Origin: Antedon mediterranea | Taxonomy: Eukaryota > Animalia > Echinodermata | Direction: 5' to 3' | Assembly: GCF_964355755.1 (NCBI RefSeq) | Contig: NC_092674.1 | Coordinates: 14,136,001-14,200,000, forward strand | DNA length: 64,000 nt | Shown here: positions 18,101 through 63,529 of the stretch, piece by piece | Layout: each line of letters starts with the position of its first letter | Position numbering within the stretch: position 1 is the stretch's first letter | Translations under genes and position numbers: made by a program | Notes under the pieces: generated by a model | What the model was told of the DNA's origin: nothing | Databases searched by the model: none | Seen by the model: only the letters and a program-made list of their open reading frames with translations

Positions 18101-21100
18101 CTCCTGGGATTCATTTGGAGACATTGCAGACATATCAATGATAGTAAGGCATTGATTCTTATGTATAAATCTTTAATTCGGTCTAATCTTGAGTTTTGCT
18201 CTGTTATTTTTCTTTTTCTCAGTCTATTATGTTACAACGTGTTCAAAATAAGTTTTGTAGGTTTTATTTCCGTACATTTGGTCAAAATCCCAAGTTAGTT
18301 CTACTTAAAGATAGAAGGAATGTATTTTATTTAATTTTCTTGTATAAATGTATGAACTCTGTTGTTGATGGTAACTTTATTTCTTATTTTCACCTTTCCG
18401 TTCCTGTTTATAGATTAAGAAATCCGGGGTTATTTTTTGTTCCACCGGGAAGGGTTAAAGTAACTAGGGATGGTTGGATCTGTCGTCTTCCTAGATTATT
18501 TATTTCTATTGGCTATTGTAATCTGTTTTTTGATATTTTTTGTGATACTATTTATTGTTTTTGGTTGTAAGATTACTGTTGCTATTACTTCTATTTAATT
18601 ACTTTCTTTATGATAATTTGCTATGGTATTGATATACCTGTAATTTTAGCTAATTGTTTTGTTTAATTATCAATATAAATTACATTTATTGATTCAATCC
18701 TGTTATGGGCGACTTTGGTCGCTGTTGGATGAAGATGAAATAAAAAAAAATACAAAGTAGGTCTTTTTGATCTATAATATGACCCGCATTGTTAATTGGT
18801 TCATTTTGGTATGTTATTACCGGCACGCCATTTAAATTAAAAACTTTTTAAAAATCACACTGAATTATGTAGCACCCCTTATAATTAATGTTTGTAAAAC
18901 TTACATTGTTTGGAAGATCCAATTTAGCACCTGCCTTGACCAAAATAGTGCAAACATCTGTGTGGCCGCAATATGCAGCCAAAAGTAAAGGTGTCCATCC
19001 ATACTGAAAGATTACAAACATTATGGTATAGTATTTTTCACTCTACAACATATTTAATATCGTACTGAAATCAATTCGATGTGATCATTTAAAAATAACT
19101 TTATGTAAATAAATAATGCCAAATAAGATTTTTCGGATGATGTATTGTGGCGTATACATCTATTTTGCTTGTATAATATTCTTTTTTTATAGTACTGTAC
19201 AAAATAAATGTTTCTTAGCTTTTTCTGAAATGTAAACATTTCCAGTAGTGCTAATTTATCTGAATGTAAATTATGGTACAGAGTGGTGTTTGCGTCTAAA
19301 CAGGCAGTTACGACTGAAAACGTATCCAGGCTTCAAAATGTTCAGGTAACACATTTTGAATGCTAACTTCTTACTAGGCCCATTGGTTTCATTTTGCCGT
19401 CACGGGGAGGAGATATTAATGAATTACCAAATCAAATGGATATCTCGATTCATATCCTTTTTTTTTTGTATATTATATACAAAAAAAAAAATAATATATC
19501 ACTTGTACAAAATAATAACAAAAACATGACACACCTTACCATTCTGTGCTCTAAAGGCAGATGGTAAACACTATTACGGAATCTACAATGCTAAAAGTGA
19601 GAATACTTTCAATGACAGATTTATAAAACAAAAAAGACGTAGACAAAATACGTAAGTCTATGCAAAAAGTAAAAACGCTGAGCATGAGCCTTTTTGATAG
19701 TCATAGTAATAATACTTATTGTTGTGCCATTTAAAATCTCTAGTGATTTATTTACAATGTCAATTCCACAATGGGTATTTCATATAGTAGGTGATTTACA
19801 TTTTGTGTTATAATTATTTCGAGTGTTTCACCTGCTGTGATAGAAACTATACTGTAGTGAGTTAAAATATAAACATATTATTAGTGTATTGGTAAACACA
19901 TGATGTACTGCAAACCAAAATAGTGTATCTGTGCGCATAATAGTAGGTGACATTTGTAAATGAGACCGTTTTATTTGACACGAAAAAGCATGTAAACTCC
20001 TAAAAAACGTACTTAATCATATAATGTAGTACATTTTGAATGTTGACATGACATGATAAACAATAAACATGTTACTTCTAACAGAGTTCAACTTAGATTG
20101 TTCTCGGGTTACTTGGATTTCGTTCTTAAATACTGTGTATTGTCGTATTTATTGTCATGCCATGTGTTCTCTACATTTCGATATTAAATAAGTTAGGGTA
20201 CGGACATTTCTCGTAGTATTATAGGGTAACACCGTGGCTTAAAAATATATTGTTTATTATAAAACATAGACCTTTGCAAAAACACTACCTTAACCTTGCC
20301 ATATACAATGATTTAAAATTCTGAGTTTAATATTATAGTATTACTGTTGAACCTCCGTAAGAGGCCGCCTCTTGAGCGGCCGCGGCAAATTTGTTTACAA
20401 CACATTAGATTGTTTGTATGGTAAATTACCTCCCTGTAAGCAGTCACCCCCAAAAAAAATCGTATTGACTTTTGAAAACAAGACCATATACATGGCTGCA
20501 TGCGCCCGCACAAATTTTAGCTGACCGACCAACTGACCGACCGACATATTGAGCTGTAGAGTCGCGTTTTGCACGCGACTAAAAATACAATTTTGATACT
20601 AATATTGTGCTTTATATATTAGGTTTATTTCGAAGCGGTTTTAAAAATATTTCTGTGAAGAACATTCCTGTGTTTTTTATTAGATGAGATGAGAAAACTA
20701 CACAGATTTTTACCAACCGATTGTCTGAAAATCATAAATAATTCTAAACCATCTGATTATAAATTAAATGGAGAATATAGAGGCTGGTTGTGTTCAGAAA
20801 GCCGAAAAATATCGTGATTTTGGCCCTCTATCGGCAGAATCTCCCGTAATCGGCCACTTTTCAATTCCATAAAATAAGGCAATTAATAGTAGTTGATACC
20901 TTAGTGGTTATAACAGCCCATGGCTCAACTTGAACTCATCAAGCCCAAAGACGTTCATTTTTGTCGCAAATACTGTAATATGTAATATATAGAGTAAATG
21001 GAAGAGTAAGCAACTGAAGAAAATATATTTAGGGCTAGCCTAGATATCATAAGGAAGCGAATTAATTACAATTGTCACGGCTGCTCTCTTCAGAAAAAAG

Positions 21101-24100
21101 CGAACCTACGAACCCCACTTGCTATGGGCTTGTCCTTCACCTTAACGAGTTCGAGTTATCCACGTTAACGCACACCCTGTAACTAAAATGAAATACACAT
21201 ACTCTATGACCCGAAAAAAATGTTTATAGTGTGCTGAATTGTGTCTATTCTGTGTCATACAATATTAAGTGCGAATAACCAATAAGTGAAAGTTAATATT
21301 CTATTCTATTCCGTTTATTCAGTAAAAAGGCCTAAATTTCAATCAGATATGTTACTTTTCACTATGATGACAAGATTACGAAATCAGCAACAGTTGACCA
21401 CATACGAATGACAATCGGTTCTTTTTAGTGGACTGAATTATTATCATTAATTGACTTAAACAGCCACCAACTGTTAGTACTCAGTTTAATAAAACCAAGT
21501 CCTACTTGTACAGAGAACTCGACATGAACACTTTTACAGATACAATATCATTTCACTATAAAACTTTGATATCATGTGTATATAAACAACACTGGATGTG
21601 TTTACAATTGCCATGTCACGGGAATACGGTTGAGTTTCATAGAAAACAAAGTTGTAGAGATTATAAGTTTCTGAAATATACTGTAGTGCTGCTGTGTTAT
21701 CTGAGAAAGTTTATAATCTAATCACATTATTTGTTCAATTATCTCAACACAAATACCAATTGAAATGCCATGGTTTCTGTGATTAGTTCTTTAGTTCTTT
21801 TAAATATGTTTACTATAATTTTTCCCATCTCTTCTGAAAATTGTTTCAATTGCCTGACAAACAAGGAAAACGCTTATCGATCATACTAACAAGTAAGTTA
21901 TCAGGGATATAGTTATTTCTTCAGGTTAATGTACTTACATTTCCATCATCATCCATCATAACCATTATCTTCTATCACGTAAAGTATTAAGAGTACACGC
22001 CTGTTCATGGGCGCCATATTATTGCTCATATATTATTTTACCAAAAATATTTTGCAAACATGGTTAATGTATTGGTTAGATTCAACGTTACTTTGTTTAC
22101 CAATTGGGGTAGTATATTCATGTGAAGTAATAATATTAACAAGGTCGACACTTGGGAAACCAAATTTTCTGGAAAAAAGCAATGAATTTGATACTGCATG
22201 ATATTTTTTTTCTGTTATTAACCATGTTAAGAAGTAAAAATAAAATGTCAATTATTGCTTTATTTTGGGGTTAAAGGTCACCAAATACAGGCCAAAAATA
22301 CCAAAAAATCGTATTTTAAAAATAAAACCATTAAACTAGTTTAGATAAACGGCGATTCTAGAAAAAATAACAGCGAATTTATCAAAACTGTTGTTTTGCT
22401 CTTTTAAAGTGAAATGACATGGTTTCTCCAAATTCCATGGTTTCAAGACACTATTAAAATATACCAAATAAAACATTTTTAGTGGATTTATATAATTTAA
22501 GATGTCTTCTTCCTCAACAATATTAAAAAGTTTCGATTGTCACATTTACCATTTTTGGACTTTTGGCACACTTTGAATTGGTTCTGGTCAACTGTGCTAC
22601 GGACCAAGAGCTATTATTATAATCGGTAATAGTGACCCTTTATAACTTGGTGTTGTATATGTTGTGCCAGCGTGCGCGATATTGGTACATTACGTTACGT
22701 TCTAGGCGTTGTAGTAGTAAACAACCTAATGAAAGTGACATTGGGTAGACTTGTGAATGGTAGTTGCGAATGAATTGCCGTTTCTTACACAGGGAGCATA
22801 CCGCCTTTCGTAACTACATATTTTGGTCCCTGGATGTGTATCGCATGGCCCCCGGATGTCGACGCGTGAGCTGGGCGAACTTAACTTCTAAATAATATAG
22901 TTACTGTATAAATGTTTCTTACAAAGACAAGTGCGTCCTATCACTAGTAAAGTTAGTAACTTGATTCACATTTTGGATCCTGTCACTTTGATACAGCACA
23001 GATATCAACGCGTGAACAGCAATGAAAATGAGTTCCTGAATTAGTCCTATTACTGTGATATTATTTAAATATATTTTTTACTAGAAAATTAGTTTTATGA
23101 AATGTATTCTACAAAATTAGTAGGCCTAATAATTGTTTTCTCTCAGAAATGAAGTGGGGGGAGGGGGCACGTGTCTGTTTATGAGTGAGAATCAATAAGG
23201 CATTTAATTAAAATGCAGACCGTCTTAAAATTACTTGACATGTTTCAATAAATATATATTCTCATTATCAGAACTGTAATCAAAGCCTAGAGTACTTGTA
23301 TACGTACTACACAGTTGCATTTAAATGAGTCAATAATTAGCATGAAAATTTACGTAATTAATACACAGTGAAAGAGCTTATTTTAGTAAGATGGAAAAAT
23401 CAGTTACAAAAGCCGACGATAAGAGAGAATTACATGTTGCTACTCGGAGACTGCGGCAATTAACAAACTCATAGAATAATAAATAAAGACGCATGATGAC
23501 ATAAGCTCTGGCTTAAATAGTTTAATTAGTAAATGAACATTCACCCATGTAAAACTGCACATAAAAGTCATAAGCAAATATAAGTTATATAGCAATAATT
23601 TTCCAATTCTAAGTAAGCACAACAGGGATGCTCAGAGAAAAATAGCCCGCGGCAGGTGCCAATTAAGGCACCGCCTAGAGCAGCCCACCAAAGAGCAAGA
23701 AACAATGAAGAATGTTCACTTACTCACATGAAACTGAGATAAAAAAAATGGTTCAACCAGGACTCCTTGGAAGGGTCTCCAAAGAGACTGATAGGTACAA
23801 AAATCACCATTAATACAACGATGCTCCCCATGAAAGTATACGCAGATACTTCATGGCAATATGTTGAGCATCAGCACCGTCCACCCAAGGCTAATCCAAG
23901 GGCTCCACTACCGTACACTGCAATGGGAGCAAAGTTATACAAACACATCGCCAATAAAAAATACTGAGAGAAAACAAAAACGCATGGATGTAAGTGAGTT
24001 ATAATGTAAATGTAGATTTTTATTATGTTGTTGAAAATTCGCAGAAATTAAAATTATTCAATGAAATACAACAAGATTACTAACACCCTATCCAATTAGA

Positions 24101-27100
24101 TTGCCAAGGGCTGTAGGTTGTCAACAAAGCATGTCCCAGGTTTACACGATGTCTAGAACAGAATTGGTGAACTTTCAGAAATTGTCTTCGGTTTTTCTGT
24201 AGGTTGATCCAATATTTAAATCAAAGACACATATAATATGAAAAAATAATGTTTTAAGTACATATTGATAAAATATTAAAGTGATTGGTGGAGAATTGAT
24301 GAACGGGAACGGAAAAAGAAAAGAGTAGGCACATGTTTTTCGATTCTCAAGCCACGGTCCGTTAGTTCCATTGTCTCAGGCTGAGTGAGGCTAACCTGTG
24401 ACTGTCAGTAGAATTTTGGCTTAACGGAGGTTAAATCTTCTATATAATTGTATTTTAACCAACATTGATAATAATAATGATTAATATATTTGCTATTCCT
24501 AACGTTTCGAAGAGTTAATAATAGGTACTTTAATATTTTTAAGTGTTTTAAAACATATTAGTTTGAAATGCCCAACATTTAGCAGCTAAATTCATCATGG
24601 GGGATTTCAACTCATGTTCATTAAAAGAATACCTACCTACATACCAGCAATATGTTGATTGTCCAACTCGCAACAATACGTGTATCGACCTTTGCTATGG
24701 AAATATTGATGGTGCATACAAGTGTAAAGCTATGGCGGGTCTTGGCAAATCTGATCACAATATGATCAGCCTCATTCCAATATATAAAAACCGTCTTCGT
24801 GATAAACCCTCAAAGAAAATAAAGGTAAAACGTTGGACTGAGGAAGCCAGCGAGACCCTTAAAGGGTGTTTTGAATGCACAAACTGGGATGCATTAACGG
24901 AAAATGCAGAAAATTTGAGCGAAGCGACCCTCATTGTATCCGAATACGTAAGATTCTGTGAAGAAATGATTATACCTGTATCAAGAATTAAAGTTTTTTC
25001 TAATAATAAACCTTGGGTGTCCAAAGAACTCAAAGAACTCCTTAATAAGAAAAAGAAATGTTTTTATGACGGAGAGAAAGAGAAGCGATAAGATATACAG
25101 AAGCAAATCAAGCGGAAAATTATTGAATGCAAAAAGGAATATAAAAATAAAATTGAAAGGTCCTTCCGAAATCGTGACTCATCTAAGGTTTGGCAAGGTT
25201 TGCAGAATATTACTGGTTATAAACCGAAGGCAAAGGGTGTTGTTGTTGACAATGAAAAGAAATATGCAAATGATTTAAATGCCTTCTACAACAGATTTGA
25301 TAAAGTGGACGTTGACTTGAACATGAGGGAAACAACAAAACGCGTTGATGAACTGCCGGTACCCCCGGAACATTTTCAAATCACTGTGGACGAAGTGAAC
25401 TTATTATTTAAAAAACTTAACCCACGTAAGGCAAAAGGTCCCGATAATATTAGTTGTAAGACTCTTAAAATGTGTGCCGATCAGTTGGCCATTCCTTTTT
25501 GTAAACTTTTTCAATCCTCTGTAAATGACTCAATAGTTCCAATGTTGTGGAAAAAATCAACAATCATGCCCATTCCCAAAAAACCAAATCCCAAGGAAAT
25601 GAATGATCTTAGACCTGTGGCCCTTACATGTGTACCAATGAAGTGTTTAGAAAAAATTGTTAAAAGTAAGCTAGTTGCCTCAGTGGAGAATCTGCTAGAT
25701 ATAAATCAATTTGCATATCGTCCAAACAGGTGTGTTGATGATGCAGTGCTTCTGCTCCTTAATAATGTTTCTGAGCACCTAGAGAAAAAAAGTTGCTTTG
25801 CGAGAATTCTTTTTGTTGATTTCTCTAGTGCATTCAATAATATTCAACCATATGTTCTGGCTAATAAGCTTATCGATTTAGAAGTTAACCTACTGATTAT
25901 AAAACGGCTACTTAATTTTTTTAAATATAGAGAACAGCGTGTTAAGCTTAATCACACGTTGTCCTCGTTGTTGAAAGTTAACACGGGTGTTCCACAAGGT
26001 TGTGTGTTGTCACCTTTATTGTATACAATATACACAAATGATTGTAAGTCAAATAATACAAAAACTGAGATTATTAAATATGCAGACGACACTGCTCTGA
26101 TTGGTTATCTGGATTCAAAAGATGATTCAATGACAGGCTTCTTAGACAGTATTAATATTTTTCACAAATGGTGTAAAGATAATTTTTTAGATCTAAATAT
26201 AAATAAAACTAAAGAGATGGTTTTTGATTTTCGGAAGAAGATAAACTACCTTCCCAAGATCAAAATCAATGGTGAGACCATTCCGGAAGTTAAAACTTAC
26301 AAATATTTAGGGGTTGAAATTGATAATGAACTTAAATTTGATGCAAATAGTAGGTGCATATACAATAAATTACAAAAACGTCTCTTCTTTCTACGCAAAT
26401 TAAACTCTTTTAAGATTGACCGTACTATTTTACAACTTGTTTATACTTCTATCTTAAACAGTGTACTTAGTTTTTGCCTAATATGTTATTATGGTAATTC
26501 ACGTTTTAAGGATAGACTTTTACTTAATAAAATAGTTAAACAAGGCAGTAGAATAGTAGGCTCTGAACAAATTCAACCTGAAGTTTTATATAAGGAATTA
26601 GTAATTAAAAAATTGAAAATTATTTTAAAAGACCACGCTCATCCTCTGCACTATAAATTTAACAAAAGTCAACGTTGTGACAGACTCCTTCAAAGAAAAA
26701 TTAAAACAAATAGATATGGCAATTCATTCGTCCCTTCCGCTATACGATTATATAATGAATGATAATATCATTCATTATATAATCGTGTAATCGTATTTTA
26801 TGCGCTAGTTTTATTTTTTGTAGTTTTTTAATCGACTTTTTAGGATTTTATATGTATATTTTGCATGGCTTTTTTTTTATCGTATTTTATATTTTATGTA
26901 CTGTATCCATTTTATATTTGTATGTACTGTACTTTTGAAAAGGCCAACAGAGTTTCCCCATGGGGATAATAAAGTTTTAATTGAATTGAATTGAATTGAA
27001 TCCCTATTATAGTAAATGGAATCGTCCGTACCATGAAAGTTAAATACTTTATGAACAGGTCCACTTATTTTCAAGGGATATTCAATGATTATTATTAATT

Positions 27101-29514: not shown

Positions 29515-29559
<45 letters not shown>

Positions 29560-30854
29560 TTTAATATATAAAATATTATATATTATTAAAAATAGAATTT
29601 AACTCGTCACTTTGACCTAATATATATAAATGAATTAAATAAGCAACAGTGTCCCAGTAAATATATCACACAGTAATGAAAACTGGATACTCGATGTAAT
29701 ATCTGAATGTTAGTCTGTTATCGCTCGACATACCATACCAATGTGCAATGTGGTTTGCCGTTACTGTAGTGCCTGTCTGTTAAAGCACGCTAGATTTCAG
29801 TGTAAATCGTACTCTCGGGCCTGAACATCTAATACAGTACTGTTTTAAAAGAGCTTTTATAACAAAAATGTTTGTCGTTAATATCTTCCTACGAAAGGAA
29901 GGATTTATGTATGGGCCTTGTCTTCGACTAAGGCGAAATCAATGTGCGGGTCGTTATCGCACGACATATACAATGCATGTGCGTGTCGTTCATCGCACGA
30001 CATATAAGAGTATATGTGCGGGTAATGTTTGTGTCGTTAATATCTTCCTGCAAGAGGATTTATGTATGGGCCTTGTCTTCGACTAAGGCGAAAGTAAATG
30101 TGCGAGTCGTTATCGCACGACATATAAAATTCATGTGCGAGTCGTTCATCGCACGACATTATAAGAGTATATGTGCGGGTAATGTCTGTGTCGTTAATAT
30201 CTTCATACAAGAGGATTTATGTATGGGCCTTGTCTTCGACTAAGGCGAAAGTAAATGTGCGGGTCGTTATCGTACGACATATAAAAATGCATGTGCGAGT
30301 CGTTCATCGCACAACATAACAGTATAAATATCGTTAATATCTTCCTACAAGAGGATTTATGTATGGGCCTTGTCTTCGACTAAGGCGAAAGTAAATGTGC
30401 TAGTCGTTATCGCACGACATGTAAAATTCGTGTGCGAGTCGTTAATCGCACGACATGTAAAATCGTGTGCGAGTCGATAATCGCACGACAATAAAATTCG
30501 TGTGCGAGTCGCAAATCGCACGACATGTAAAATTCGTGTGCAATCGTTAATCGCACGACATGTAAAATTCCTGTGCGAGTCGTTAATCGCATGACATGTA
30601 AAATTCGTGTGCGAGTCGTTAATCGCACGACATGTAAAATTCGTGTGCGAGTCGTTAATCGCACGACATGTAAAATTCGTGTGCGAGTCGTTAATCACAC
30701 GTCATGTAAAATTCGTGTGCGAGTCGTTAATCGCACGACATGTAAAATTCGTGTGCGAGTCGTTAATCGCACGACATACAGTATAGTATAAGAGTATAAT
30801 AGGTAATGTTTGTGTCGTTACTATTTTCCTACGAGAGGACAACATAATTATACA

Positions 30855-30903
<49 letters not shown>

Positions 30904-33900: not shown

Positions 33901-36900
33901 AAGACGAAAACAAAATTGGCCATTAATCATAGCCATTTCAGTTTTTTGTTTATTTTAAAACATACCACACGTGTGTGAAGGTACAGTAGTTAAATAATAG
34001 GAATTATACTGCAAATTAATAAAGATCAAATTAAATATACGCCATAAAGAATCAGAATATATTGTGGGGAATAGTATTATAAAATTACATAGGGAGATTT
34101 GATAAGACATTTTTCGAGTGAAATCCCGATAGCTGAGTTTTATTGAGTAAGCTTGCAGGAATAACTGTAGGCTATCTTCCTGTGTCCCGTTAGGACCGAG
34201 ATGTCTGCCCATGTTGCAAGCCGTAATGTCTTCTTTCTTGGGCCCACTCTGTCACGGCAGTTAGTTTCAAAAAATGATTAAATTAAATAATGTATTAATA
34301 ATTATTAGGATGGTATTCATTTGAATAAACGCCTCTCCAATAAAACATCACTTTGAATAATAACCCCCCCCCCCCCGCCCCCACACAACCCAACTATCTA
34401 ATAAACGTCCATTCACATATTTAGCATTTGTTATTTTTTTTTACCACTTTTCATATCTATGAGAGGATTTCATTTGATTATAAATGTTACCATATTATTA
34501 GAACTAAAAAATTTAACATATATCCCTCGAATAAGCACCTCCCTCAAATGACCTCCGCCTCCCCAAAGGGCCCTACCAAACAATAAAAACTATACTTTAA
34601 AATGTTATTAATCATCTAAAACACTGTGAAACAAAGTAGTTCAGTTTTACGAATGTCAAGCATTTTCAATAATGGTAACCGACAGAAAATGTATAAGGAG
34701 AACATTATCATTCCGAGAACCATCGTCTACACTTCCTAGAGGGGGAGCGAGCGAAGCGAGCTCACCCTCTAGTATATTTAATTTTGCTTAAGTTCAGTCT
34801 ACACTATCAAACTTTATGTGAAAAAATTGATATGCCCATATTATAGGCCTATGGATATCACTACCATATTTGGGCACATAACATTTTTTTTATTCTACAT
34901 TTGTTTGTATGTGTATTATACAAACATGGTGATGTTATTGACACCGATATCAGACCTTCTGTTCTTTCAGACCATCAAGCTATTTCGTTGAAAATTATAA
35001 ATAGTCATAAGAAAAAAGGACCTGGAAATTGGAAATTCAATAATAGTTTTTTGGAGGATAAAGATTTTATACAAAGCATTTTAAATATTATTGAAAATAT
35101 TTAAAAAAATGAAAACAAGCTTAATCCAAGTCTCTTATGGGAATACCTAAAAATTAAAATAAAGGAATTCTTGTGTAAATACGGAATAAATAAGAAAATC
35201 CAAAAAAAATATAAGAAAGAATACATTAATTAAAGAAGTGTATACGTTAAACGATGAGCTTGATGGTGCTTATGATCAAAAGACAGAAAAGATATTAAAT
35301 AACAAATTAAAAGAGCTAAACCAAATGTATACATCTGAAGCAAAAGGAGCACAAATTAGGGCTCGAGTAGAATGAACTGAAAAAGGAGAAAGAAATACTA
35401 AGTTCTTTTTAGGTTTAGAAACCTAATGGGAAAATTACTACAAACACCCAGGAAATTCTTAACGAGCAAGTTAGGTTTTTCAAAGAATTGTATAAAGAAA
35501 CCCCTTCAAACCAGGAAAATATTAATAGTTATTTTGGTAGTACTAAAATCAATACACTGTCATTTGAAGAAGAGCAATAATGTGAATGTGTGTTAACAAA
35601 TTATGAATGCAAGATGGCTCTTTTAAACATGAAGTTAAATAAAAGTCCTGGTATAGATGGGCTAACAGTCGAATGTTATCGCACATTCTGGGATTCCTTA
35701 GGAAATTTATTGTGTGATTCTGTTAACTTCAGTTTCTTGAATAAAAAACTGACATCTTCGCAACGTAAAGGTATTATTTCATTACTGTATAAAAAAGGTG
35801 AAAGAGAGAAGCTTCATAATTGGAGACCTATTACTCTTTTGAATATTGATTATAATATTATTGCACAAGTGTTAGCCAATATGTTACATTCGGTCATTAG
35901 CTCCATATTTAATAATGATCAAAAGGGATATATCAAAGGCAGGTTCTCGGGTGAAAGCATAAGATTAATAGAAGATTTACTTGATTATAGTGACGCCTAT
36001 GACACCAACGCAAGTATAAAACAACTACCGTATATTTCGGTGTATAAGTCGCACTTTTGACACGCAAATTTGACCTCCAAATTAAGGGTGCGTCTTATAC
36101 ACCGAACATAAATGCCTCACCACACAGATTGTACATAGGCCTAGGCTATCGTCACCTCGTTTGCTAGGCCTGAGTAGGCTAGGCCTAGCTACAGTAACTA
36201 ACTAACGTAACGGCAACCTGCTTCTGCCTAGGCCTAGTTTTCAAGTCATTTTAGCATGATGTTATACTAAATATGATGAAAAGATTTGTTCATTATGGCG
36301 CTCCGATAAAATTTCATTTGTACGTAAACGTTTACGTCGTACGATTGGAATAGTATTTATTTATACAGTAGTTATACGCACGATCGCCGTACCCCAAGCG
36401 CAAGCCCTTCTTTTGGTGGCACATGGTGTGCGGTATTCGACTAGTATATTCTCCAGGTGATTATAGCATGGACCTAGCGTACACACTTCTCGGATACATA
36501 GATACTAATCGAATACGATTGTCTGTGAAAACGTGCGCCCTCTCGAAATGATCGAGCGAGGCTAGCCCACACACGTGCGTGTTACACACACGACGGTCAT
36601 GCACTCGATGTTGCGGCGAAACTCATGAATAACAAGTGAGAAAGAACTTGTTGAGGCTGGGCGCGGCCGAGCCTAGGTAAGAAAAAACCTAAATAAAGGA
36701 CGCCGTTGTAGATATAACAAAATATATTATCACAATAATATTGATTACAATTTAAAAAAACATTGTTTTGATGAAATATAAGGTGCGTCTTATACATCGA
36801 CGATATAAAAAATACCGATATTTTACTCTCAGTTGGGGGTGCGTCTTATACACAGGTGCGACTTATACACCGAAATATACGGTATATTCTACAAATAAAC

Positions 36901-39900
36901 AGGATCAGAAATAGACAATGTAGTCGCTTAGTATATATACCAATTTCATCATGTAACTTCTGTGTTCAGTGTTCTGTTATTTACGTACACTATACAACAA
37001 CACCTGCAGCCCCGTGATTATGTTTAACAATAATATGTAAAATTAATGTTAAACATCAGAGATGTTATCTATCGGGTTGCCAGTTATAATGTAGTAAAAA
37101 CAAATAATGCTAGAATATAAAAACTACATAATGAAAAAAGAAAACCTGGATAACCCCATTTCGTTAACTATACTAACTTTAGCTAAATTGGAGCTCATCA
37201 GTCACACATTGTAGTACATTCCGACTATCAGGAATCTTAAATAAACAATGGTAGGAAAGCGTAAACTTACTGTGAGTTTTTTGTAATTTAAATTATAATA
37301 GTATGACGTTAATTAGGCCTATTTCAGATAACAGGATAGCGGATTTTGTTTTATCAGGCTCACTCTGCAATCACGATCTCTTTTCTCGAATTCTAATCTC
37401 ACATAAACGGGCAATGAAATCATTATTAAAAACATGTAAGCTTATACAGTAGGCATATATTTATAGTATTTATTAATCTATTTTTTGTATTGTTTTACTT
37501 GGTTTCATCGTATTAATAGCCTATTCGTGGATACTATTTTAAAAAATACAAACAAAGGTTTGCATTTTTTGACGATGGTTTCGCTGTATAGCTTAATGTC
37601 TGTTTCTATAGAAACTCTCAGATCAACCGGCGGACGCTTTAAATAATGTTGCTGATGACTTTTATGATGATTTTGAAGAATAAACTGAATAATTAAAAAT
37701 GAGGCATATAAAAATCATTTTGCAGGATTGATTTCCGTAATATAAATTATGTAAAAGCGTTGTTTCCAGTTTTTATAGTTGAGGCCGACATATCGAGTAT
37801 GATGTTATACAAAATTATGATTGCTATAAAAACATGATAGGAAAATAACTATTGTTGTTACGTTGTACCATGTTGTGTTGAAGTTTAACAGAACAATATA
37901 AATAGTTCTAATGGTTCTGCTAATTTAGTATTATTTATATAATGTAGTGACAGTACTTTAGGTATGTTATTACCGGTTCGCCATTTAAATTTGAAAATGA
38001 AACCATTTATTTTAATAACACTGAACTATATAGCACCCTCATTAATAATGTTTGTAAAACTTACATTGATTGTAATATCCAACTTAGCACCTGCCTTGAG
38101 CAAAATACTGCAAACATCTGTGTGGCCCTTACTTGCAGCAGAATGCAAAGGTGTCCAACCGTTCTGAAATATTACAAACATTATGTCATAGTATTTTTCA
38201 CTTCACATCAAACTATCTAATATTGTACTAAAATAAATAAGGTGTGATCATGTGTAATACAAATTCAATTAAATAATTACATTTATATAATCATTTAAAG
38301 TATGTGTAATCAGTGCTACTAAGCGCCTTTGATGATTACATTGTTTACTTAATTATGGCAACACAAACACAATATAAGTATATTAAAGTTACTTTTTGAA
38401 ACTTAAAATTCAGCACCCGTCTATTTACAGGAACTAATTCAGAAGTATAACCCTGGTCGCCAGGGACTCAGATCTACATAAGATATTACTCGTCTTGTTG
38501 TTCCTAAAACTAATGGACTATTTAGTGATAAATCATTTTCTGTCATTGGACCTAAGTTATGGAACAATTTACCTATTAATGTTCGTATTGCTCCAAGTAT
38601 ACAATGTTTTAAAAAATTGTTAAATAGTTTTCTTAATTTAGATATGTACTCCTTTTTTATTTAGAGCGAACGCAAACAAGGATGAACTAACTCAGAACAT
38701 AATCACTAAGCGTTCAACCCCAGGCAGGCTGCCCACGGCAGACCGGAATACGTGAGGGTACGATCCTCCCTGCCTCTAAAAACTAAACACTTAACAAAAA
38801 CGAGATGCGAGAAAACAGAAATTACGATATGTACTGCTCTAATTAATGTACAGCGCTTTGGTCTTTGGGGAAAAGCGCTTTATATATACATATACATATA
38901 GTATAGTATAGTATACAATACATTGCCATAAATAGGTTGTTAAATGATACGGGTATGTACTTCTTGTATCTAATTTGTAAACAACAATATAATTTTAATT
39001 ATAAATTTGTAATATTAAACCATTGGACAGTGTGTGTGTGAAATATGTAATGTACTTCCTCTATCTAATTTATAAAAAAATATATTTTAATTAGACTTGT
39101 CTTTATTCATTAGGCATAATGTGTATGTACCAGTTCCAGAAACGAATGAAAAACGATTATTAATAAAAGTATGAAAGAACACTTAAAACGAACAATGCTT
39201 AATGGTTTTCCTAAAAATTTAACTCAATCATCACCGTGATGAATTCGGGATATTTGCGTCATAACATGAAATACACATAATACTCTATGATCTGCAAAAA
39301 AAAAATCTTTATAGTGTGCTGAGTGGTGTCTATCAATTTTGTACATATAGTAACAATGTGGTCCAAGCATGAGCTTTTTTCTTTTCCTTCTATTATTATC
39401 CTTAATAACATTGCTAATTAATTTCATTTCTTATAAGAAACTCCTTATATTCTTGTGATAATCCCGCGATAATAATAAGTAACATCAGCAACACTAAATA
39501 CGTACACTTTTCATAAAGGAGAAATTATATCCAGGTTATTAGTGTATGGGTAGTAGCACAACTATCATTTATTCTGGTGATTACCGTAACAGATCACAGT
39601 TTAACGTTGGGAAACATGTAGTGTTAATTTAATATAGGCATAATAAAATAAAAAATAAAAATTATTAATAAAGATTACGGTATAAGTTCACCTTATCAAT
39701 AAATGATTAGGAGAAAAAAAATAATAAACCGGACGTGTTGGTCAGCCGATTGCAAATTTGAACCAAATCAAATGAAAACGGAATAAAAACAATACCATAT
39801 ATTTATATTGTATGATCAATATTGCACTTGTTTAGTGAATTTTAGATGTTAAAACGGCAACAATACGAGCTAGGCCTACTTTGTAGTGGCATGAAAGTAG

Positions 39901-45900: not shown

Positions 45901-47405
45901 TACAAAGTGCAAAGGTTATCACAAAGTGTGACAGTTTTGTCACCATGTGCGTACGACAGGTATTACAAAGTATTATGTGACGATCATTACAAAGTGTGAC
46001 AGTACAAAGGGGGTTTACAGATAGTTATTATATATGCGATATTTCAAGACAGTTTATCAGGAATCGACCCTATTTTTGTTATTTCTTGAGTTAAGTTTCG
46101 GGATCATTAATTTGAAAAATATAGGTCTTGGTGAGATCTTGCTTGGAGGTTTCTAGGTCCCGGTGGCGATTTTTTTTTCGTACATAAGTTGGGGACCCCC
46201 TCATGAAACGTCACAAAATAAACATGAATAATTCATCAGTTAAATTTTCTTGCTCAGTGTGCACCCACGCGTATAGCAACAAGAACAACTGCGATACGAT
46301 TCTAGGCCTAGGCGATTCTCCACTGTGTTTGCGGCGTGCGATTTCATAAAAGAATAGCGGCGTTTTGTGTGGATTGTCGAAATAATCTGTCTTTAGTTTT
46401 TGGTTTTTTTTTAATATAATTTATTACTAAAGAATTACGTGTTAAAATTATAGTTTCTATTAATACTATTAGGCCTAATTAGTAGTCTCTAAAGCTCGTA
46501 TCTATTCTAGTAGTCTGTGTGGGTGTGTGTGTTACTGTTAGGTACTCCGAGTAATAAATTAAACAATTACATTACACAAAATTTATTCTCGTGTTCATAT
46601 ACGCGCATTTTTAAAGTTACATTGAGTACATGCATATTGTTTGATAATAAAATAACAGAATTAAAAAATTACAGTACACAAAATTATACACATTCTTTAT
46701 TCTCGTGTGTCTAAACTTTCTTTGGGCTATGACCAATACTACTAATGTGTCTTGCTTAGCTGTCGATTAGTCTCGACACATTTTGCATAGTGGTAGTGTG
46801 TGTATGTGTGAAGACTGCTCAAGAGTGCGCCAAGGCAATCACGTGAATCCTAGGCCTAGGAAGAATCGTATCGCAGTTGTAATAATCACTTGTTGCTATA
46901 CACTTGGATGCACACGGAACAACAAATTTAACTGATGAATTATTCATGTGTATTTTGTGACGTTTCGTGAGGGGTCCCCAACTTATGTACGAAAAAAAAA
47001 ATCGCGTCCCGGGGTTTAAATGACCGCGACTTTTAAACTATCATTGGTTGATCTAACTGCCCAATGTCAAGATTAACCTTGACAAGGTAGCGGTGTTCCG
47101 AGACATGTGATGGTACAACCGTGCAGTTTTCGACAATACAGTAATCCTTGATACAAAGTATGAAATGATATATGACCCGCAATGTGATTTGGTTCATTTA
47201 GGTATGCTATGTACGCCGGTACGCTCTTTAAATTTAAAAATTAAATATTTATTTAATCACACTGAATTATATAGTAACACTTATTATTAATGTTTGTAAC
47301 ACTTACATTTCTTGGAAGATCCAATTTAGAACCAGCCTTGAGCAAAATAGTGCAAACATCTGTGTGGCCGTTTTGTGCAGCCACATATAAAGGTGACACT
47401 CCATC
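114..47405 (-). CDS. Partial multi-exon ankyrin-repeat + Roc GTPase (ROCO-family) gene; 12 predicted exons, 5' and 3' ends not found in window
   Basis: Twelve GT-AG-bounded exons join in one open frame with compatible phases: 47307-47405, 38065-38163, 18905-19003, 8459-8557, 6461-6583, 5739-5841, 4645-4680, 4062-4221, 3255-3352, 2400-2512, 1091-1100, 114-148. Translation gives ankyrin repeats followed by ...[33 protein letters not shown]..., typical of a Roc domain N-terminus. Confidence 0.85.
1091..1100 (-). CDS. Candidate 10-nt micro-exon (phase 0-1)
   Basis: TAG|GTCATCAAAG|GTGAGT; supplies the phase change needed between exon 2400-2512 and exon 114-148. Confidence 0.45.
1600..2122 (-). 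pseudogene. Possible decayed DNA-transposon coding relic
   Basis: 90-aa ORF (1850..2122) plus further frameshifted protein-like fragments inside an intron; family not recognised with certainty. Confidence 0.2.
2400..2512 (-). CDS. Roc insertion exon (113 bp, phase 1-0)
   Basis: TAG acceptor, GTACGT donor; encodes [38 protein letters not shown]. Confidence 0.75.
3255..3352 (-). CDS. Roc switch-I exon (98 bp, phase 2-1)
   Basis: CAG acceptor, GTAAAA donor; encodes [32 protein letters not shown] (xTxG motif); overlaps ORF 3241..3447. Confidence 0.85.
4062..4221 (-). CDS. Roc GTPase P-loop exon (160 bp, phase 1-2)
   Basis: TAG acceptor, GTAAGT donor; encodes [54 protein letters not shown], with the pre-Roc 'IP..I.ARG......Y.EAL.EG' helix and GxxxxGKT. 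Confidence 0.9.
4645..4680 (-). CDS. Linker exon (36 bp, phase 1-1)
   Basis: TAG acceptor, GTATGA donor; encodes [12 protein letters not shown] in frame with its neighbours. Confidence 0.7.
5284..5545 (+). repeat. Degenerate tandem duplication, about 135 bp x2
   Basis: aaatatct..aaactttatt...attctattaataa...aagaatataatgtga...cattggYtgagaattta occurs twice. Confidence 0.7.
5739..5841 (-). CDS. C-cap-like ankyrin exon (103 bp, phase 0-1)
   Basis: CAG acceptor, GTGAGT donor; encodes [34 protein letters not shown]. Confidence 0.8.
6029..6255 (+). mobile_element. 5S rRNA-derived SINE3-like retroelement (5S head + LINE-type 3' tail + A-rich tail)
   Basis: 6029-6130 follows the 5S rRNA consensus (accacgttgaaacaccggttctcgtcagatcaccgaagttaagcaacg...cttggatgggagacc..ctgggaat) with a decayed 3' end. 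6168-6206 resembles the 3' end of the LINE fragment at 44161-44201 (minus). (aaaat)n follows. Confidence 0.75.
6461..6583 (-). CDS. Degenerate ankyrin exon (123 bp, phase 0-0)
   Basis: TAG acceptor, GTTGGT donor; encodes [41 protein letters not shown] (TLLHL motif). Confidence 0.75.
7079..7540 (+). repeat. 231-bp tandem duplication, probably the end of a non-autonomous DNA transposon
   Basis: Units start at 7079 and 7310 (aagcctggtttcctgtcgacgtaag) and are nearly identical; each has three gattttacaggaaacc motifs. Confidence 0.8.
8459..8557 (-). CDS. Ankyrin-repeat exon (99 bp, divergent from the other three)
   Basis: CAG acceptor, GTAAGT donor; encodes [33 protein letters not shown]. Confidence 0.9.
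9650..10198 (-). mobile_element. Old CR1-like LINE, 3' part
   Basis: Decayed RT C-terminus ([20 protein letters not shown]...F) and ...gctgttgg...aataataaaa tail. Confidence 0.7.
10205..14293 (-). mobile_element. Young 5'-truncated CR1/L2-group (Crack/Daphne-like) LINE with intact ORF2
   Basis: Flanked by a 6-bp direct repeat gtagct (10199-10204, 14294-14299); 3' stem-loop, (TA)n and aataaa(cgaaa)n tail. Confidence 0.9.
10641..13808 (-). CDS. LINE ORF2: APE endonuclease + reverse transcriptase (1055 aa)
   Basis: HLNARSL, TET, GGGVAIY, GDFN, TLIDNIF, SDHFPV; [40 protein letters not shown]. Confidence 0.95.
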   Translation of the reverse strand: MDPFDNIDAFPFNHIIDNDEFLHVIHYYFCDDRIDFDRFNSLIFNPFDINFKDVINDNDAQLFSENIESCAYEYIDSLNNKYSTQDYSFSIFHLNARSLVKHFNDINVCVGAINHEFSALCFTETFFNHNTPFSFYNIPNYNLLHVSRADRPGGGVAIYLHQRFKYILRPDLSFIITNGSESLFIEIDAQPKNIILGVVYRLPELSINTFNKDISNLIDTINNEKKTAYISGDFNINLLNSKTHKGTSDFVNTLFQSNYYPLITRPTRITRNSATLIDNIFCNNLYDNISSGILYSDISDHFPVFLLVHKSEPLQHLKPKSKYIYIKKVNDISISALSNDLSNVDWTSIYNSNEPNEAYALFNDIFSTLYNNNIKTTRSRRNIRKEKKPWITKCLIKSIDKKHKLYKTFLISKKQKDKDKYVKYRNVLTKILRTAQKNYFSDKFEFHKNNIQKTWQTINGVLGKKSRKPFPSHFINNDIELNNPQQIATEFNNYFTSIGPNLVNKIHVSDNDNYTSTLPRPCVHSLFLSPVTEHEVVSIILSLKDNKSPGFDGFSNKIIKRVSNFICKPLTHIFNTSFQTGIFPDSFKIAKVIPIYKKEDPHHFNNYRPISLLPCFSKLIEKIMHNRISSFLTKHNILFKGQYGFRKKYSTDLALLDIFDKITIALSKNEFSVGIFLDLSKAFDTINHDILIHKLSNYGIRGLPLKLIKSYLSNRVQFTSLNNFNSSYSRLTCGVPQGSILGPLLFLIFVNDIPNSSKLLNVILFADDTNIFFSHPKLNTLFKIVNDELLKVSNWLKHNKLTLNTFKTNYIIFSKRKISNSLNEQIYIDNKMTKRVNETQFLGVTIDASLTWKLHINKISNLVSRNVRILNKLKHIFPQKTLLTLYNTLVLPYLSYANLCWAITLDKFSTLCPWTSLEKTQIDRLFKLQKRALRICAGESFRAHTKLLFKRFNVLNIYDLNKLQVASFMYRLSNNLLPSHFNALFTRIDERHSYKTRSSVNNYILDNLNVKARRFSMYYFGPKLWTSLSNELKQKSSFSSFKSNFKHKMVSEYAT
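14300..14980 (-). mobile_element. Old CR1-like LINE RT fragment (upstream part of the element at 9650-10198)
   Basis: Frameshifted RT motifs ([22 protein letters not shown], gttccgcagggctca = [18 protein letters not shown]). Confidence 0.75.
16871..17980 (-). mobile_element. Rex1/Babar-like LINE fragment (endonuclease C-terminus to RT start)
   Basis: [42 protein letters not shown]; frameshifted. Confidence 0.85.
18000..18752 (+). mobile_element. CR1-like LINE 3' fragment
   Basis: [34 protein letters not shown]; tail tgttatgggcg...cgctgttgg...aaataaaaaa. Confidence 0.8.
18750..20710. repeat. Ankyrin exon cassette A (exon plus flanking intron), homologous to 47150-49108 and 37960-38260
   Basis: Colinear similarity on both sides of the exon, e.g. 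tttatttgacacgaaaaagcatgt, gattgtttgtatggtaaattacctccc, agatgagatgagaaaactacacagatttt. Confidence 0.9.
18905..19003 (-). CDS. Ankyrin-repeat exon (99 bp, phase 0-0)
   Basis: CAG acceptor, GTAAGT donor; encodes [33 protein letters not shown]. Confidence 0.92.
22620..23200. repeat. Interspersed repeat, second copy at 51190-51730
   Basis: Shared ttctaggcgttg...ttgcgaatgaa...agggagcataccgcct..cgtaactac...tgagtgagaatcaataa. Confidence 0.75.
24587..27001 (+). mobile_element. Rex1/Babar-like LINE, 5'-truncated, one frameshift near 25090
   Basis: [53 protein letters not shown]; (ttgaa)n tail at about 26980-27001. Confidence 0.92.
27374..28412 (-). mobile_element. Non-autonomous Helitron, copy 1
   Basis: On the minus strand A|TC...hairpin-CTAG|T; body homologous to 52576-53891; a partial internal duplicate lies at about 27169-27345. 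Confidence 0.85.
28575..29045 (+). repeat. Degenerate tandem repeat, about 160-180 bp x3
   Basis: atggtaRcaaaacatatttt...tatacaa...gcatRatgtgatt.ataatt recurs three times. Confidence 0.7.
29866..30840 (+). repeat. Higher-order minisatellite: about 157-bp units with a 36-bp subunit expanded to about 11 copies (30395-30780)
   Basis: Units start near 29873, 30032, 30189 and 30330; subunit aaattcgtgtgcgagtcgttaatcgcacgacatgta. Confidence 0.92.
32077..33495. repeat. Duplicated intronic segment (left part matches 36990-37290, right part matches 40109-41432)
   Basis: Direct visual alignment; near-identical over hundreds of bp. Confidence 0.9.
34712..34772 (+). mobile_element. Helitron 3' terminus (related subfamily)
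   Basis: gagaaccat...ctagaggg ggagcgagcgaagcgagctc accctCTAG|T hairpin, same architecture as 53855-53891. Confidence 0.6.
34920..35995 (+). mobile_element. Decayed L1/Tx1-clade LINE ORF2 fragment
   Basis: [56 protein letters not shown]; several stops. Confidence 0.85.
36028..36882. mobile_element. Non-autonomous Tc1/mariner (Tc2-like) DNA transposon
   Basis: Perfect 27-bp TIR ccgtatatttcggtgtataagtcgcac, TA target duplication on both sides, internal ggtgcgtcttatac repeats. Confidence 0.92.
38065..38163 (-). CDS. Ankyrin-repeat exon (99 bp, phase 0-0)
   Basis: CAG acceptor, GTAAGT donor; encodes [33 protein letters not shown]. Confidence 0.92.
38300..38890 (+). mobile_element. L2-like LINE 3' fragment with unrelated sequence inserted at about 38660-38830
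   Basis: LRS....LVVPKT....[27 protein letters not shown]; tail tgtacagcgctttg...aaaagcgctttata. Confidence 0.75.
41955..43003. mobile_element. Non-autonomous Mutator/MULE-like element
   Basis: TIR gggtgtcRcgaWacctaagatc with ctaaga subterminal repeats; 9-bp TSD tgaaatacc / tgcaatacc. Confidence 0.8.
42099..42900. mobile_element. Nested TIR element, probable ISL2EU/PIF-Harbinger-group deletion derivative
   Basis: Perfect 24-bp TIR aatagacacgtttcgcgctggcga. Inward-pointing coding relic [13 protein letters not shown] ... [11 protein letters not shown] resembles the N-terminus of SWIM/YqaJ-type accessory proteins (recalled similarity, not searched). Confidence 0.65.
44142..44810 (-). mobile_element. 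CR1-like LINE 3' fragment
   Basis: [29 protein letters not shown]; poly-A tail at 44142-44161. Confidence 0.8.
45772..46003 (+). repeat. 22-bp minisatellite (ttattacaaagtgcgacagcag)n
   Basis: About 5 good and several degenerate copies. Confidence 0.85.
46159..47013. mobile_element. MITE-like element with long (about 160 bp) imperfect TIRs
   Basis: cgatttttttttcgtacataagttggggacccc.tcatgaaacgtcacaaaata...gcgatacgattct is mirrored at 46845-47013; a related single arm lies at about 44980-45035. Confidence 0.8.
47307..47405 (-). CDS. Ankyrin-repeat exon (99 bp, phase 0-0)
   Basis: CAG acceptor, GTAAGT donor; encodes [33 protein letters not shown]. Confidence 0.92.
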
Positions 47406-49119
47406 CTGAAACATTAAAAACATGATGTTATAGTAGTTTTCACTCTAAACAAAGTATTAATATTGTACTGAAATCAATACGATCAATTAAAAATAACGTT
47501 ATGGATTCAAATAATGCTACTTTGTTAAATTAAATAAAGATTATTAACCTCTGGTGTTTACTTTAAGATAATGTATTGTATACGTATACATTTGTCTTGC
47601 TTGTATAATATTATTCATATAAGTACTGTACAAATGTAAACCAAATAAGTGTTTCTTTGCCTTTATCAGGTAGTGCTAACGAGTGAAAATTATGATAAAG
47701 TGGCACTTGAACTGGCAGTTATGACAAAAAATATAATACTAGGATCCAAATTCTGTTCAACTAAATACTTACTATTGGTTTTGTTGTAGAGTTACTGGGC
47801 TGGAATAGTTTTTTTTTATATTTTTATTTTTTTTTAAAGATGTTTTACTAAATCAAATTGATATATCGATTCATATCCTTTTAATGTATCATTTGCATAA
47901 AATAAATAATGTAGCTCGTACAGAACAACACAATACAGAAACAGAAAAGTCACCATTAAAAAAACATCATTCTCTAACATTCAGTGTTCTAAAGGCAGAT
48001 GTTAAAACTATTACGAAACCTATTTGCACGAGGGGTGATGGACCGCTTCCTTGAACTTCAAAAATGGTGCATGCGATAGGTTGGGTCTTGTAAAATCGAA
48101 TGTGTTTTCTTAGTAAAGTATCTAATGATTCAAATTGAGATCTGCTTGAGATCTGCTCTGCTAGTTTGAGTTCAAACGTGTCCTTTTGTGCCATTTTGAT
48201 ACCCTTACCCTTAATTGGTCGTGCCATTTAATATCACTAGTGATTTATTTACAATCTCATCTTCAGAGTGGGTACCGTATTAATTTCATATTGTAGGTGA
48301 TTTTACGTTATAAAATGTCGTCATTGTTTTCAATTGTTTTCACCTGCTTTGATAGAGACAATACTGTTAATAATTGTTTATTAGTAAACACATAGTGTAC
48401 CCAAAACCAACCCAGTGTATTTGTGCACATACTAGTGTGTAACATTTGTATTTTAGAGCGTTTATTTGACACGAAAAAGCATGTGAACTTCTGAAAACGT
48501 ACATAATCATAATTATAATGTAGTACATATTGAATTTTGACGTAATGATTGTTGTTGTTTTTTTAGACCACAGTAAGTGGTTGGTGTAACTTCACATTAA
48601 TGATATATTGAAACATCATATGTTAATTAGTCACCTTAATATGGTCATTTGCCATATACGATGATTTAAAAATTCAGAGTTTTAATATTATAGTATTACA
48701 GTTGAACCTTCGTGAGTGGTCACCTCCCTTAACGGTCGTAGTTTCAAAAGCACGTTTGTTCTTCATCTAATTAGTGGACCTCCTGTAAAGCAGCCATCTA
48801 ATGTGAGCGGCCTAAGCAAATTTGTTTACAACACATCAGATTGTTTGTATGGTAAATTACCTCCCTTAAGCGGCCACACAAAAAATTGGCTGCAGTCGCG
48901 TGCGCAAATTTTAGCTTAGTATTTACCGACCGACCAACCGACCGACCAAAATAGTGAGCTGTAGAGTTTGCACGCGACTAAAAATACAATTTTGATACTT
49001 ATATTGTGCTTTATATATTAGCTTCATTTCGAAGCGGTTTTAAAGATATTTCTGTAAAGAACATTTCTGTGTGTTTTTAGATGAGATGAGAAAACTACAC
49101 AGATTTTGATTGACTGAAG

Positions 49120-49295
49120 AAATGATTTGCACATTTGTAGAATACATTTTGCACATTTAACGGCGTTTGCACAAATGTGGTTGTTTGCACATTTGAAGGT
49201 AAAATGTTTGCACAAATGTGGTTGTTTGTACATTTGAAGGTAAAATATTTCCACAAAAGTGGTTGTTTGCACAAATGTGACTTTTTGCATATTTA
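49120..49295 (+). repeat. Minisatellite built on tttgcaca(aatgt/tttg) units
   Basis: tttgcacaaatgtggttgtttg.acatttgaaggtaaaat repeated. Confidence 0.8.
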
Positions 49296-50761
49296 ACGGC
49301 TCCACACGGGCACTACACGAGCGAAGCCCTTGATCAATATTAGGACCAATCAAGGTACTTTAAACAGTCCTGGCTTAGTCATCACTCAGATAAATGTAAG
49401 AATAAAATGACACTGCTGTCAATACAGACGTCGTATGCATTGTCTATTAAGACTGATGCAGGCCAAAACAATAATAAAAAATGCTTTATAAATTTAGTTA
49501 CACAAATAAAAATATGAAATCATGAGAAGAAACACTCGGGAATTTACCCTGTGAGAATTATATTCATGGCTAATGCCTCTATGTTAATAATTTGAAGTAA
49601 TCATCGGCTATCGCAAGGCGTAAACACCTACATCGGATGTAGGCATAGGTGTTTACACATGTGTTGGAAAATCAGATATTCTTTAATAGACCGTATAGAT
49701 AGATAGATAGATCGTTGTTTTCTTTGTTTTACTAAATAATGGAAATAAGAATTTAGTCGAGTCGACTTTAGATTTGCAAGTAACAGAGAAGCATTTCTGT
49801 TGTCCGTTGTCAGATGGTTATTGGATCTGTGTTGTTGATTTCCCTAATACTTATGTAATTAACCGCTTTAAGTCACCCTGCATAGTGGGTATTAACAATG
49901 TATTAGAACTCTAGTAACTGCCGTTTTCTACTTTCGACTCAATGTATTTAATTTTTTTTATGAATATGAACAGTTTGTCTTAAATGAAAGTTAAATTGAA
50001 TTTGAATTGCGTGTTTATTGTATTAACAATTGTCTGTAATTTTAGTATTAATTTGTTTAATATTTTCTTATGATGGTTAATTTTACAGGAACAACTTGGT
50101 ACTTTTTTTTAAATTCTTTTTTGGAAATTAGTGCAATTAAAGCGTAATTTTAATTAATTAATTAATTAATTTTGAATTAAAATTCAGCAATCGTCATATT
50201 CCATTTGGAATACTACGTCCTGTAAAATGACTAGAATTTACTCATGGTTTCCACATATCATGTTATCGCACCCCATCCTATTACTATTGAAACCGAATTG
50301 AAACATTTTCAAAAAGCTTTTTATGGTGGTCACAAAATGCCAAGGTACATTAAAGAAACGCTCATCGTTAGATCTATGTGTAGTAATGAGAAATATACAA
50401 ACAATGATGTTGTTGTGATGTCGTGGGTGAGTGTCAGGTGAGGCGGCGTTCATTCGAGGGAGGCATTTGTTGGTAACATTTTATAAGAAAATAAATTCCC
50501 TTAGATATGAACAAGTACAATACCGTGTTTGATATTATCAAGAAGTGATAACAGTAAACAATTGTATGAAAATGCCTGGTAAATAAATAGATATAGCAGT
50601 AAATGAATTATTCAACAAGTATAAGTATGTTTGTTTTATAATACAATATTGTGTGTATAAATTTACGTGGCGGGGTGTTTATTAGAGGGTGGAGGTTGGA
50701 TATTCCAATGATGTTTTATTGGGGAGGAGGCGTTCATTCAAAATAAATGCGGTATTAGTTA

Positions 50762-51025
50762 TCAGCTATTAATAATATAACAATTATCGTAGAAGGAGAT
50801 AGGTGTATGCGAAGCATCCTCTTATTATTGTGTGCGGGTAATTCTCCAGATAGACATCCATTAGACAATGTAAACCACGATCGGAATTATCTAACTCAAT
50901 TTAATTAGTAAACAGGGTTACATCAGGTGTTTAAAATCAGTACCGAAAGTACGAACCAACTTTATATATCCTAGAAGTAACACGCGATTTACCGAATTTT
51001 GCCTTTACGTTAATTTATATATAGA
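50762..51025 (-). mobile_element. Non-autonomous Helitron, 5' fragment (copy 2)
   Basis: A|TCtatatataaattaacgtaaag start on the minus strand; homologous to 52576-52905. Confidence 0.75.
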
Positions 51026-52462: not shown

Positions 52463-52465
52463 TTT

Positions 52466-57623: not shown

Positions 57624-57629
57624 TATTGT

Positions 57630-63512: not shown

Positions 63513-63529
63513 TAGTGAGAATAAATAAA

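Follow-up and report, generated by a model that had tools for sequence, protein, structure and literature searches.

A window of 64,000 nucleotides of the Antedon mediterranea genome was analyzed (NC_092674.1, positions 14,136,001 to 14,200,000; coordinates below are counted from its first letter, and the window always means this whole stretch). It carries on the minus strand a gene in which three duplicated ankyrin exons, here called cassette exons, lead into exons of a Roc GTPase domain, and which from its sequence is likely a member of the ROCO family. The reading that we favour, and hold to be moderately probable, is that this gene encodes a ROCO sensor in which duplication of cassettes, their exchange among loci and diversifying selection keep renewing the ankyrin face, and which would signal through Roc-COR and death-fold or HEPN domains. 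The cassette exons and the duplicated segments around them are as follows:

47307..47405, minus strand: cassette ankyrin exon 1, 99 bp, phase 0, defined by splice sites and Pfam Ank
38065..38163, minus strand: cassette ankyrin exon 2, 99 bp, phase 0, same evidence
18905..19003, minus strand: cassette ankyrin exon 3, 99 bp, phase 0, same evidence
47170..51742, unstranded: duplicated segment with exon 1, colinear with 18777-23211
37934..38306, unstranded: cassette with exon 2; a small extra block at 39262-39333 matches 21184-21248
18777..23211, unstranded: duplicated segment with exon 3, colinear with 47170-51742; multi-copy core at about 18785-19108

Each cassette exon is preceded by AG, followed by GTAAG, free of stops and above the Pfam Ank cut-off (28.5-40.4 bits against 21.1), and the encoded repeats are identical at 21-23 of 33 residues (64-70%). 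The first-pass annotation had described three 99-bp phase-0 exons in homologous intron cassettes, with a shared framework GHTDVC(T/S)IL(L/V)KAG(A/S)KLD and variable codons 1, 3, 7-8, 11-12 and 30-32. Splice sites, frames and intron alignments reproduce the exons, and the translations agree with the framework and its variable codons; codon 33 is nearly invariant. Intron homology around the exons (76-80% over 290-470 bp, in all three pairs) bears out the proposed cassette duplication and supports it as the origin of the three exons. The segments of exons 1 and 3 are colinear over about 4.4 kb, past position 49108 where the annotation had ended. No convincing transposon-like long terminal inverted repeats were found flanking the cassettes. 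Profile searches at the protein and DNA level recovered only four exons from the window, all on the coding strand, and no further hidden, inverted or inactivated copy of an ankyrin exon.

The distribution of codon changes among the three exons was then considered. The counts of amino-acid-changing and silent codons made at first reading were reproduced (10 and 1 for 18905 versus 47307, 10 and 3 for 18905 versus 38065), and the pair left out at that stage, 47307 versus 38065, has 12 and 4. Such counts alone are not proof of selection, because the whole-exon ratio of nonsynonymous to synonymous change (dN/dS, or omega, by the Nei-Gojobori method) is 0.72, 5.69 and 0.92 for the three pairs, above 1 in only one of them. 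Whole-exon dN/dS was rejected as a proof on this ground, and since it fails to show selection, sites were classed by external criteria. A designed ankyrin library randomises repeat positions 2, 3, 5, 10, 13 and 33, which are exon codons 33, 1, 3, 8, 11 and 31 (PMC4308713; this and the other papers are cited for the part of their text that was available). In the predicted structure of P0001, the RefSeq model XP_071950050.1 of Antedon mediterranea, codons 5-12 fall in helix 1 and codons 24-33 and 1-4 in the loop (predicted local distance difference test, pLDDT, of 86-95 for the repeats). The Binz set of designed ankyrin repeat proteins (DARPins) takes codon 12 instead of codon 8; DARPin alignments from the PDB, which vary at codons 3, 11 and 12, are consistent with this set. 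The proposal that the variable codons form the binding face thus stands for 1, 3, 8, 11 and 31 by the first set and for 12 by the second, and fails for 7, 30 and 32, which are framework in the library scaffold. The available parts of PMC8229355 and PMC8683736 do not list randomised positions.

Over the union of both library sets, 14 of 21 nucleotide columns are variable, compared with 50 of 177 in the flanking introns (p=0.0007), the union having been assembled after inspection of the data and the comparison covering three DNA sequences. Either set alone gives 11 variable columns out of 18 (P=0.0045 at a neutral divergence of 0.20, 0.09 at 0.30). Framework columns are variable in 13 cases out of 78, fewer than in introns (p=0.03). 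Of the six near-flank intron alignments, four have a pairwise divergence of 0.14-0.17 and two have higher values (0.29 and 0.38); the distal duplicated intron blocks diverge by 0.08-0.19. These figures support the view that change is concentrated in the codons of the binding face, beyond the intron yardstick. Diversifying selection probably acts on this face, judging from the sequences; gene conversion may also account for the pattern. Of the positive selection claimed at the outset, the excess of binding-face change over introns holds, and a whole-exon omega above 1 is found in only one pair of three.

A second comparison is with P0001, which is colinear with the gene described here: 13 of 28 surface residues, 13 of 104 framework residues and 3 of 166 non-ankyrin residues differ. 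Exon 4, a divergent ankyrin exon outside the shared cassette, was not used in the choice of sites; 4 of its 7 surface residues differ from P0001 versus 1 of its 26 framework residues (p=0.004), and two of the changes require at least 2 nucleotides. Four or more surface changes would occur there by chance with P of about 0.002 at 3% neutral divergence and 0.08 at 10%. The excess of framework differences over those of the non-ankyrin exons is the pattern expected from exon replacement.

The gene model comprises 13 exons with AG/GT sites, continuous phase and no in-frame stop, reaching the left edge of the window, beyond which the gene likely continues. After the cassette exons it runs as follows:

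8459..8557, minus strand: ankyrin exon 4, 99 bp, phase 0, divergent, outside the shared cassette
6461..6583, minus strand: ankyrin-like exon 5, 123 bp, phase 0; not in P0001, matches residues 145-176 of P0002
5739..5841, minus strand: capping-repeat exon, by match to relatives' proteins and splice phase
4645..4680, minus strand: linker exon, by match to relatives' proteins and splice phase
4062..4221, minus strand: Roc exon with the G1 P-loop GQEGVGKT, by relatives' Roc, Pfam Roc weak
3255..3352, minus strand: Roc exon with a G2-type threonine motif, by relatives' proteins and splice phase
2400..2512, minus strand: Roc insertion exon, by relatives' proteins and splice phase
1620..1736, minus strand: candidate exon of the Roc insertion, in phase, by splice sites and phase only
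1203..1233, minus strand: candidate short exon, in phase, by splice sites and phase only
114..148, minus strand: candidate short exon, in phase, by splice sites and phase only

Taken alone, the exon at 4221-4062 matches Pfam Roc weakly (E 0.064). It is 77-78% identical to the Roc-COR proteins P0003 and P0004, with the Roc G1 motif in a Roc-type context, and is the same as P0001 over the whole matched stretch; P0001 links the same ankyrin, cap, linker and Roc exons as the window gene. The passage from ankyrin into Roc exons that had been proposed is confirmed as an in-phase path, with the qualification that the Roc exons lie outside the coordinates first given and make up half of Roc only. Roc G3-G5 and COR were not found within the window, which holds the N-terminal half of Roc. 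On the other side, no start exon was found in 47406-64000, where a tblastn search with the N-termini of 10 relatives matched nothing beyond 47405. The gene has introns of 9-19 kb that are rich in retroelements.

A search with the stretch from cap to Roc gave 118 relatives at E <=0.001, and 23 of the 24 looked up belong to Antedon or Anneissia. Domain forms among 30 scanned relatives are Ank-Roc, Ank-Death-Roc, DED-Roc-COR, Roc-COR-HEPN and Ank(weak)-Roc-COR-Death. COR, Death, DED, HEPN or kinase domains occur in relatives (COR in P0003, P0004 and P0264), and P0247, with ankyrins, cap and linker, aligns to the Roc-COR protein P0004 over 730 columns. The expansion is represented in RefSeq by, for example, XP_071950050.1, XP_033111650.1 and XP_071945430.1, annotated as uncharacterized; to our knowledge the function of most invertebrate ROCO proteins is not known. 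Many crinoid ankyrin-Roc models (P0001, P0002, P0012, P0246, P0248 and others) include Roc only as far as its G1/G2 half. Models that end before G3 may be annotation breaks or a real truncated class.

Exchange between genes is visible in these automated gene models, in which the number and identity of repeat exons differ between paralogues: there are three cassette repeats in P0001, two in P0012 and none in P0002 and P0256. One repeat pair of P0001 and P0012 is identical at 30 of 33 residues, compared with 45% identity of their Roc halves. The closer Roc relatives are P0002 for P0001 (81%) and P0256 for P0012 (99%), where the best repeat match is 18 of 33. Repeats and Roc are thus incongruent, and unless one of the models is chimeric, either cassettes or complete N-terminal halves have moved from one Roc clade to another. 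Domain-level mosaicism is also seen between P0012 and P0256, which lie on contigs of unequal length and whose Roc halves are 99% identical and N-terminal halves widely different. In the isoforms of P0002, P0005 and P0006, single residues differ where exons join, in one instance between two ankyrin repeats, which resembles the effect of tandem acceptors. A search for long cassette-bearing proteins (568-2000 aa) returned in its best 120 of 623 matches only generic ankyrin proteins at identities of at most 49%, long repeat proteins crowding the list; in a search at 178-567 aa, 3 of the 120 matches listed are from Antedon.

Copies of the cassette were also sought in four sequencing runs from two organisms, contigs being aligned to 18650-19450 at 80% likeness. 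The runs gave 164, 90, 126 and 147 contigs, some of them on a neighbouring repeat, and 23-31 contigs per run carry one common exon variant. In run X1, a 95-bp contig with the constant half of the exon and the donor flank has a depth of 835 versus 76 (11x) for the contig most like the locus, which is 721 letters long with 25 differences and 3 gaps and differs at least at exon codons 1, 3, 12 and 22. The cassette is covered by many contigs in all four runs and both organisms: it is multi-copy in two species, summed depths giving no copy number. Its read-depth profile tapers, without sharp ends. A separate high-copy repeat adjoins the cassette at 18650-18757 in all four runs. In run X5, which we guess to be RNA, exon/flank depth is 19 and 36 versus 0.5-3.5 in the other three. 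One X5 contig (depth 15) passes from the last base of the exon to 36 new letters and then to the constant half, at exact splice positions; it is a head-to-tail exon junction with a new variable half. Read most simply, this junction comes from tandem cassettes that were spliced linearly; it may also come from back-splicing or from a copy that lacks introns.

In the proposed sensor, a single mRNA would encode the cassettes together with Roc, COR and a death-fold domain. A ligand at the concave ankyrin face, perhaps a non-self protein of a pathogen or symbiont, would switch the Roc-COR dimer, and the signal would leave through Death/DED or HEPN effectors such as those of the relatives. The gene is likely the animal equivalent of rapidly evolving candidate immune receptors in brown algae and fungi, an immune role of its own being putative, by analogy with them.

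Several observations weigh against this ROCO sensor. Whole-exon omega is below 1 in two of three pairs, and at a neutral divergence of 0.30, taken as the upper estimate from the flanks, significance is lost in two of the three pairs (p=0.09). The surface positions are also naturally high-entropy positions of ankyrin repeats (PMC4308713). The ankyrin framework differs more between the window and P0001 than the non-ankyrin exons do (13/104 versus 3/166), the number of repeats is the same in both (three cassette exons and exon 4; n=2, which may be allele or paralogue), the cassette-type framework occurs in only 2 of 364 collected proteins (P0001 and P0012), and P0001, P0002 and P0012 end before G3. 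Selection might be absent altogether: conversion would homogenise the framework and the nearby intron, and tolerant surface codons would drift or arrive as patches of older copies. We regard this as rather unlikely. It accommodates the abundance of near-identical copies in which the constant half and its flanks recur, the repeat common to different Roc clades and the omegas of 0.72 and 0.92, and conserved flanks may lead neutral divergence to be underestimated; however, the distal duplicated intron blocks give an equally low yardstick, and the surface-only pattern recurs in exon 4, which is not part of the cassette, at the chance levels given above.

That the cassettes lie outside any working ROCO, in a truncated or decaying gene or as exons of another transcript mis-chained to Roc by prediction, seems to us very unlikely. 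The long retroelement-filled introns, the lack of a start exon in 47406-64000, the intron-like beginnings of P0001 and P0012 and the ends of P0001, P0002 and P0012 before G3 would all fit such a gene. They are opposed by 13 exons without stop or phase break, by a framework more conserved than introns, by only 3 differences in 166 residues of the downstream exons relative to P0001, by the spliced cassette junction in X5 (RNA by guess), and by P0247, a relative in which ankyrins, cap and linker are joined to a full Roc-COR region.

A further feature of the cassettes is a 12-bp inverted repeat around the exons:

47288-47299, 38046-38057 and 18886..18897, minus strand: donor-side arm, all three exons
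38172-38183 and 19012..19023, minus strand: acceptor-side arm, exons 2 and 3; degenerate before exon 1

The donor-side arm begins 8 bases into each cassette donor intron and complements the arm that immediately precedes the exon 2 and exon 3 acceptors. Of the nine pairings of a cassette donor with a cassette acceptor, six contain a perfect complement of 12-13 nt, a length reached by 0-1 of 1000 shuffles; among 160 non-cassette pairs, 1 has a complement of at least 12 nt. These arms may bridge the 9-19 kb introns or promote exon skipping. On a different account, compatible with the ROCO sensor, they would generate diversity within the animal, any cassette donor being able to pair with any acceptor or to hide an exon, with combinatorial skipping or back-splicing. 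We consider it quite improbable, in spite of the complements just described, of arms that pair across the exon in centroid or minimum-energy folds, of the absence of variants inside an arm (0 of 40 listed variant rows, 63 further rows existing) and of the alternative splicing of repeat exons in Ectocarpus ROCO genes (PMC11378527). The inverted repeat counts as n=1, because one ancestral feature was copied three times; it is AT-rich and was found post hoc. Its duplex energy is matched by 37, 0 and 76 of 1000 shuffles, the RNA fold of the whole region is not better than shuffles (z of -1.25 and -0.39), and the window gene holds just three cassettes. A broader idea, which we think unlikely, is that ankyrin cassettes from all over the genome are interchangeable and act as a DARPin library made by nature: they would be recombined into many Roc-COR-death genes and combined per transcript through the arms, and the echinoderm would have a variable repertoire of intracellular receptors with a novel architecture.

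The rest of the window contains mainly mobile and repeated elements. A long interspersed nuclear element (LINE) open reading frame (ORF) of 1064 uninterrupted aa, with endonuclease and reverse transcriptase, lies between ankyrin exons 3 and 4 (10641-13835, minus strand). Further non-LTR (long terminal repeat) retroelement ORFs or fragments are at 16944-17924 (minus), 24567-26762 (plus), 35581-36060 (plus) and 54125-57127 (minus). A DDE_Tnp_4 transposase fragment (62219-62608, plus) faces an ORF without Pfam match (63530-63949, minus), a pair which we take to be Harbinger-like. Adjoining tandem arrays occupy 29867-30777 (157 bp x 3.9 copies and 36 bp x 10.7 copies), and a unit of about 231 bp was recently duplicated in tandem at 7073-7545 (94% identity). 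Within an intron of the gene, a 5S rRNA-like copy with a broken terminal stem (6026-6138, plus strand; Rfam RF00001, 58.9 bits) is likely a pseudogene; there are no other Rfam matches in 6400-64000.

A similar domain order is found in DAPK1 (kinase-ankyrin-Roc-COR-death), a single conserved gene. The crinoid ROCO expansion of Antedon mediterranea and Anneissia japonica shares the cap, the linker and the split Roc with the window gene, and has cassette-type repeats in only two Antedon models. The variable codons 1, 3, 8, 11, 12 and 31 lie on positions randomised in designed ankyrin libraries, the ANK-N5C library and the Binz set. Codons 7 (the His of TPLH) and 32, by contrast, vary in the crinoid exons and are fixed in the libraries (PMC4308713). 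The brown-algal ROCO genes of Ectocarpus and Saccharina also place N-terminal repeats, there leucine-rich repeats (LRR), on a Roc GTPase, with one repeat per exon in uniform phase, exon duplication and shuffling, and an excess of change on the ligand face; an immune role is proposed there, not proven (PMC3341825, PMC11378527). The likeness to Ectocarpus exon shuffling noted at first reading is borne out by the one-repeat exons, their uniform phase and their duplication. The crinoid repeat is an ankyrin of 99 bp in phase 0, whereas the algal LRR has 72 bp in phase 2; three cassettes are present in the crinoid gene compared with 13-17 in the algal ones, the host is an animal, the introns of the window contain no inverted or dead exon copies, and the relatives carry death-fold or HEPN domains.

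The ankyrin NOD-like receptors (NLR) of Podospora anserina, such as Pa_3_8560, have a comparable design: a constant framework with sites in the inner helix and hairpin loop that are under selection there, and recombination within, perhaps between, loci (PMC4986451). They are built on a STAND NTPase (NACHT or NB-ARC) instead of Roc, and the crinoid repeats differ in being separate exons in kb-size introns. With 64-70% aa identity, the crinoid repeats are below the criterion of 85% over 100 aa for fungal HIC-ANK NLRs, and repeat number, polymorphic in Podospora, is the same in the window and P0001 (n=2) (PMC4986451). Literature on crinoid ROCO proteins or the cassette was not found in a search by title and abstract start, most subscription papers being outside its coverage; the papers that came up deal with algae, fungi, LRRK, DAPK and immunomes in general. 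The design is already known from brown-algal ROCO genes and fungal ankyrin NLRs, and no account of a crinoid version came up in the literature searched. If our reading is true, the large crinoid ROCO family, with its Death, DED, HEPN and kinase variants, would be an unrecognised intracellular sensor system beside the NLRs. The crinoid gene would work like the Ectocarpus LRR-ROCO genes and the Podospora ankyrin NLRs but belongs to neither group; such an ankyrin form in a deuterostome would mean, again if true, that animals arrived independently at the solution of the algal LRR-ROCO genes.

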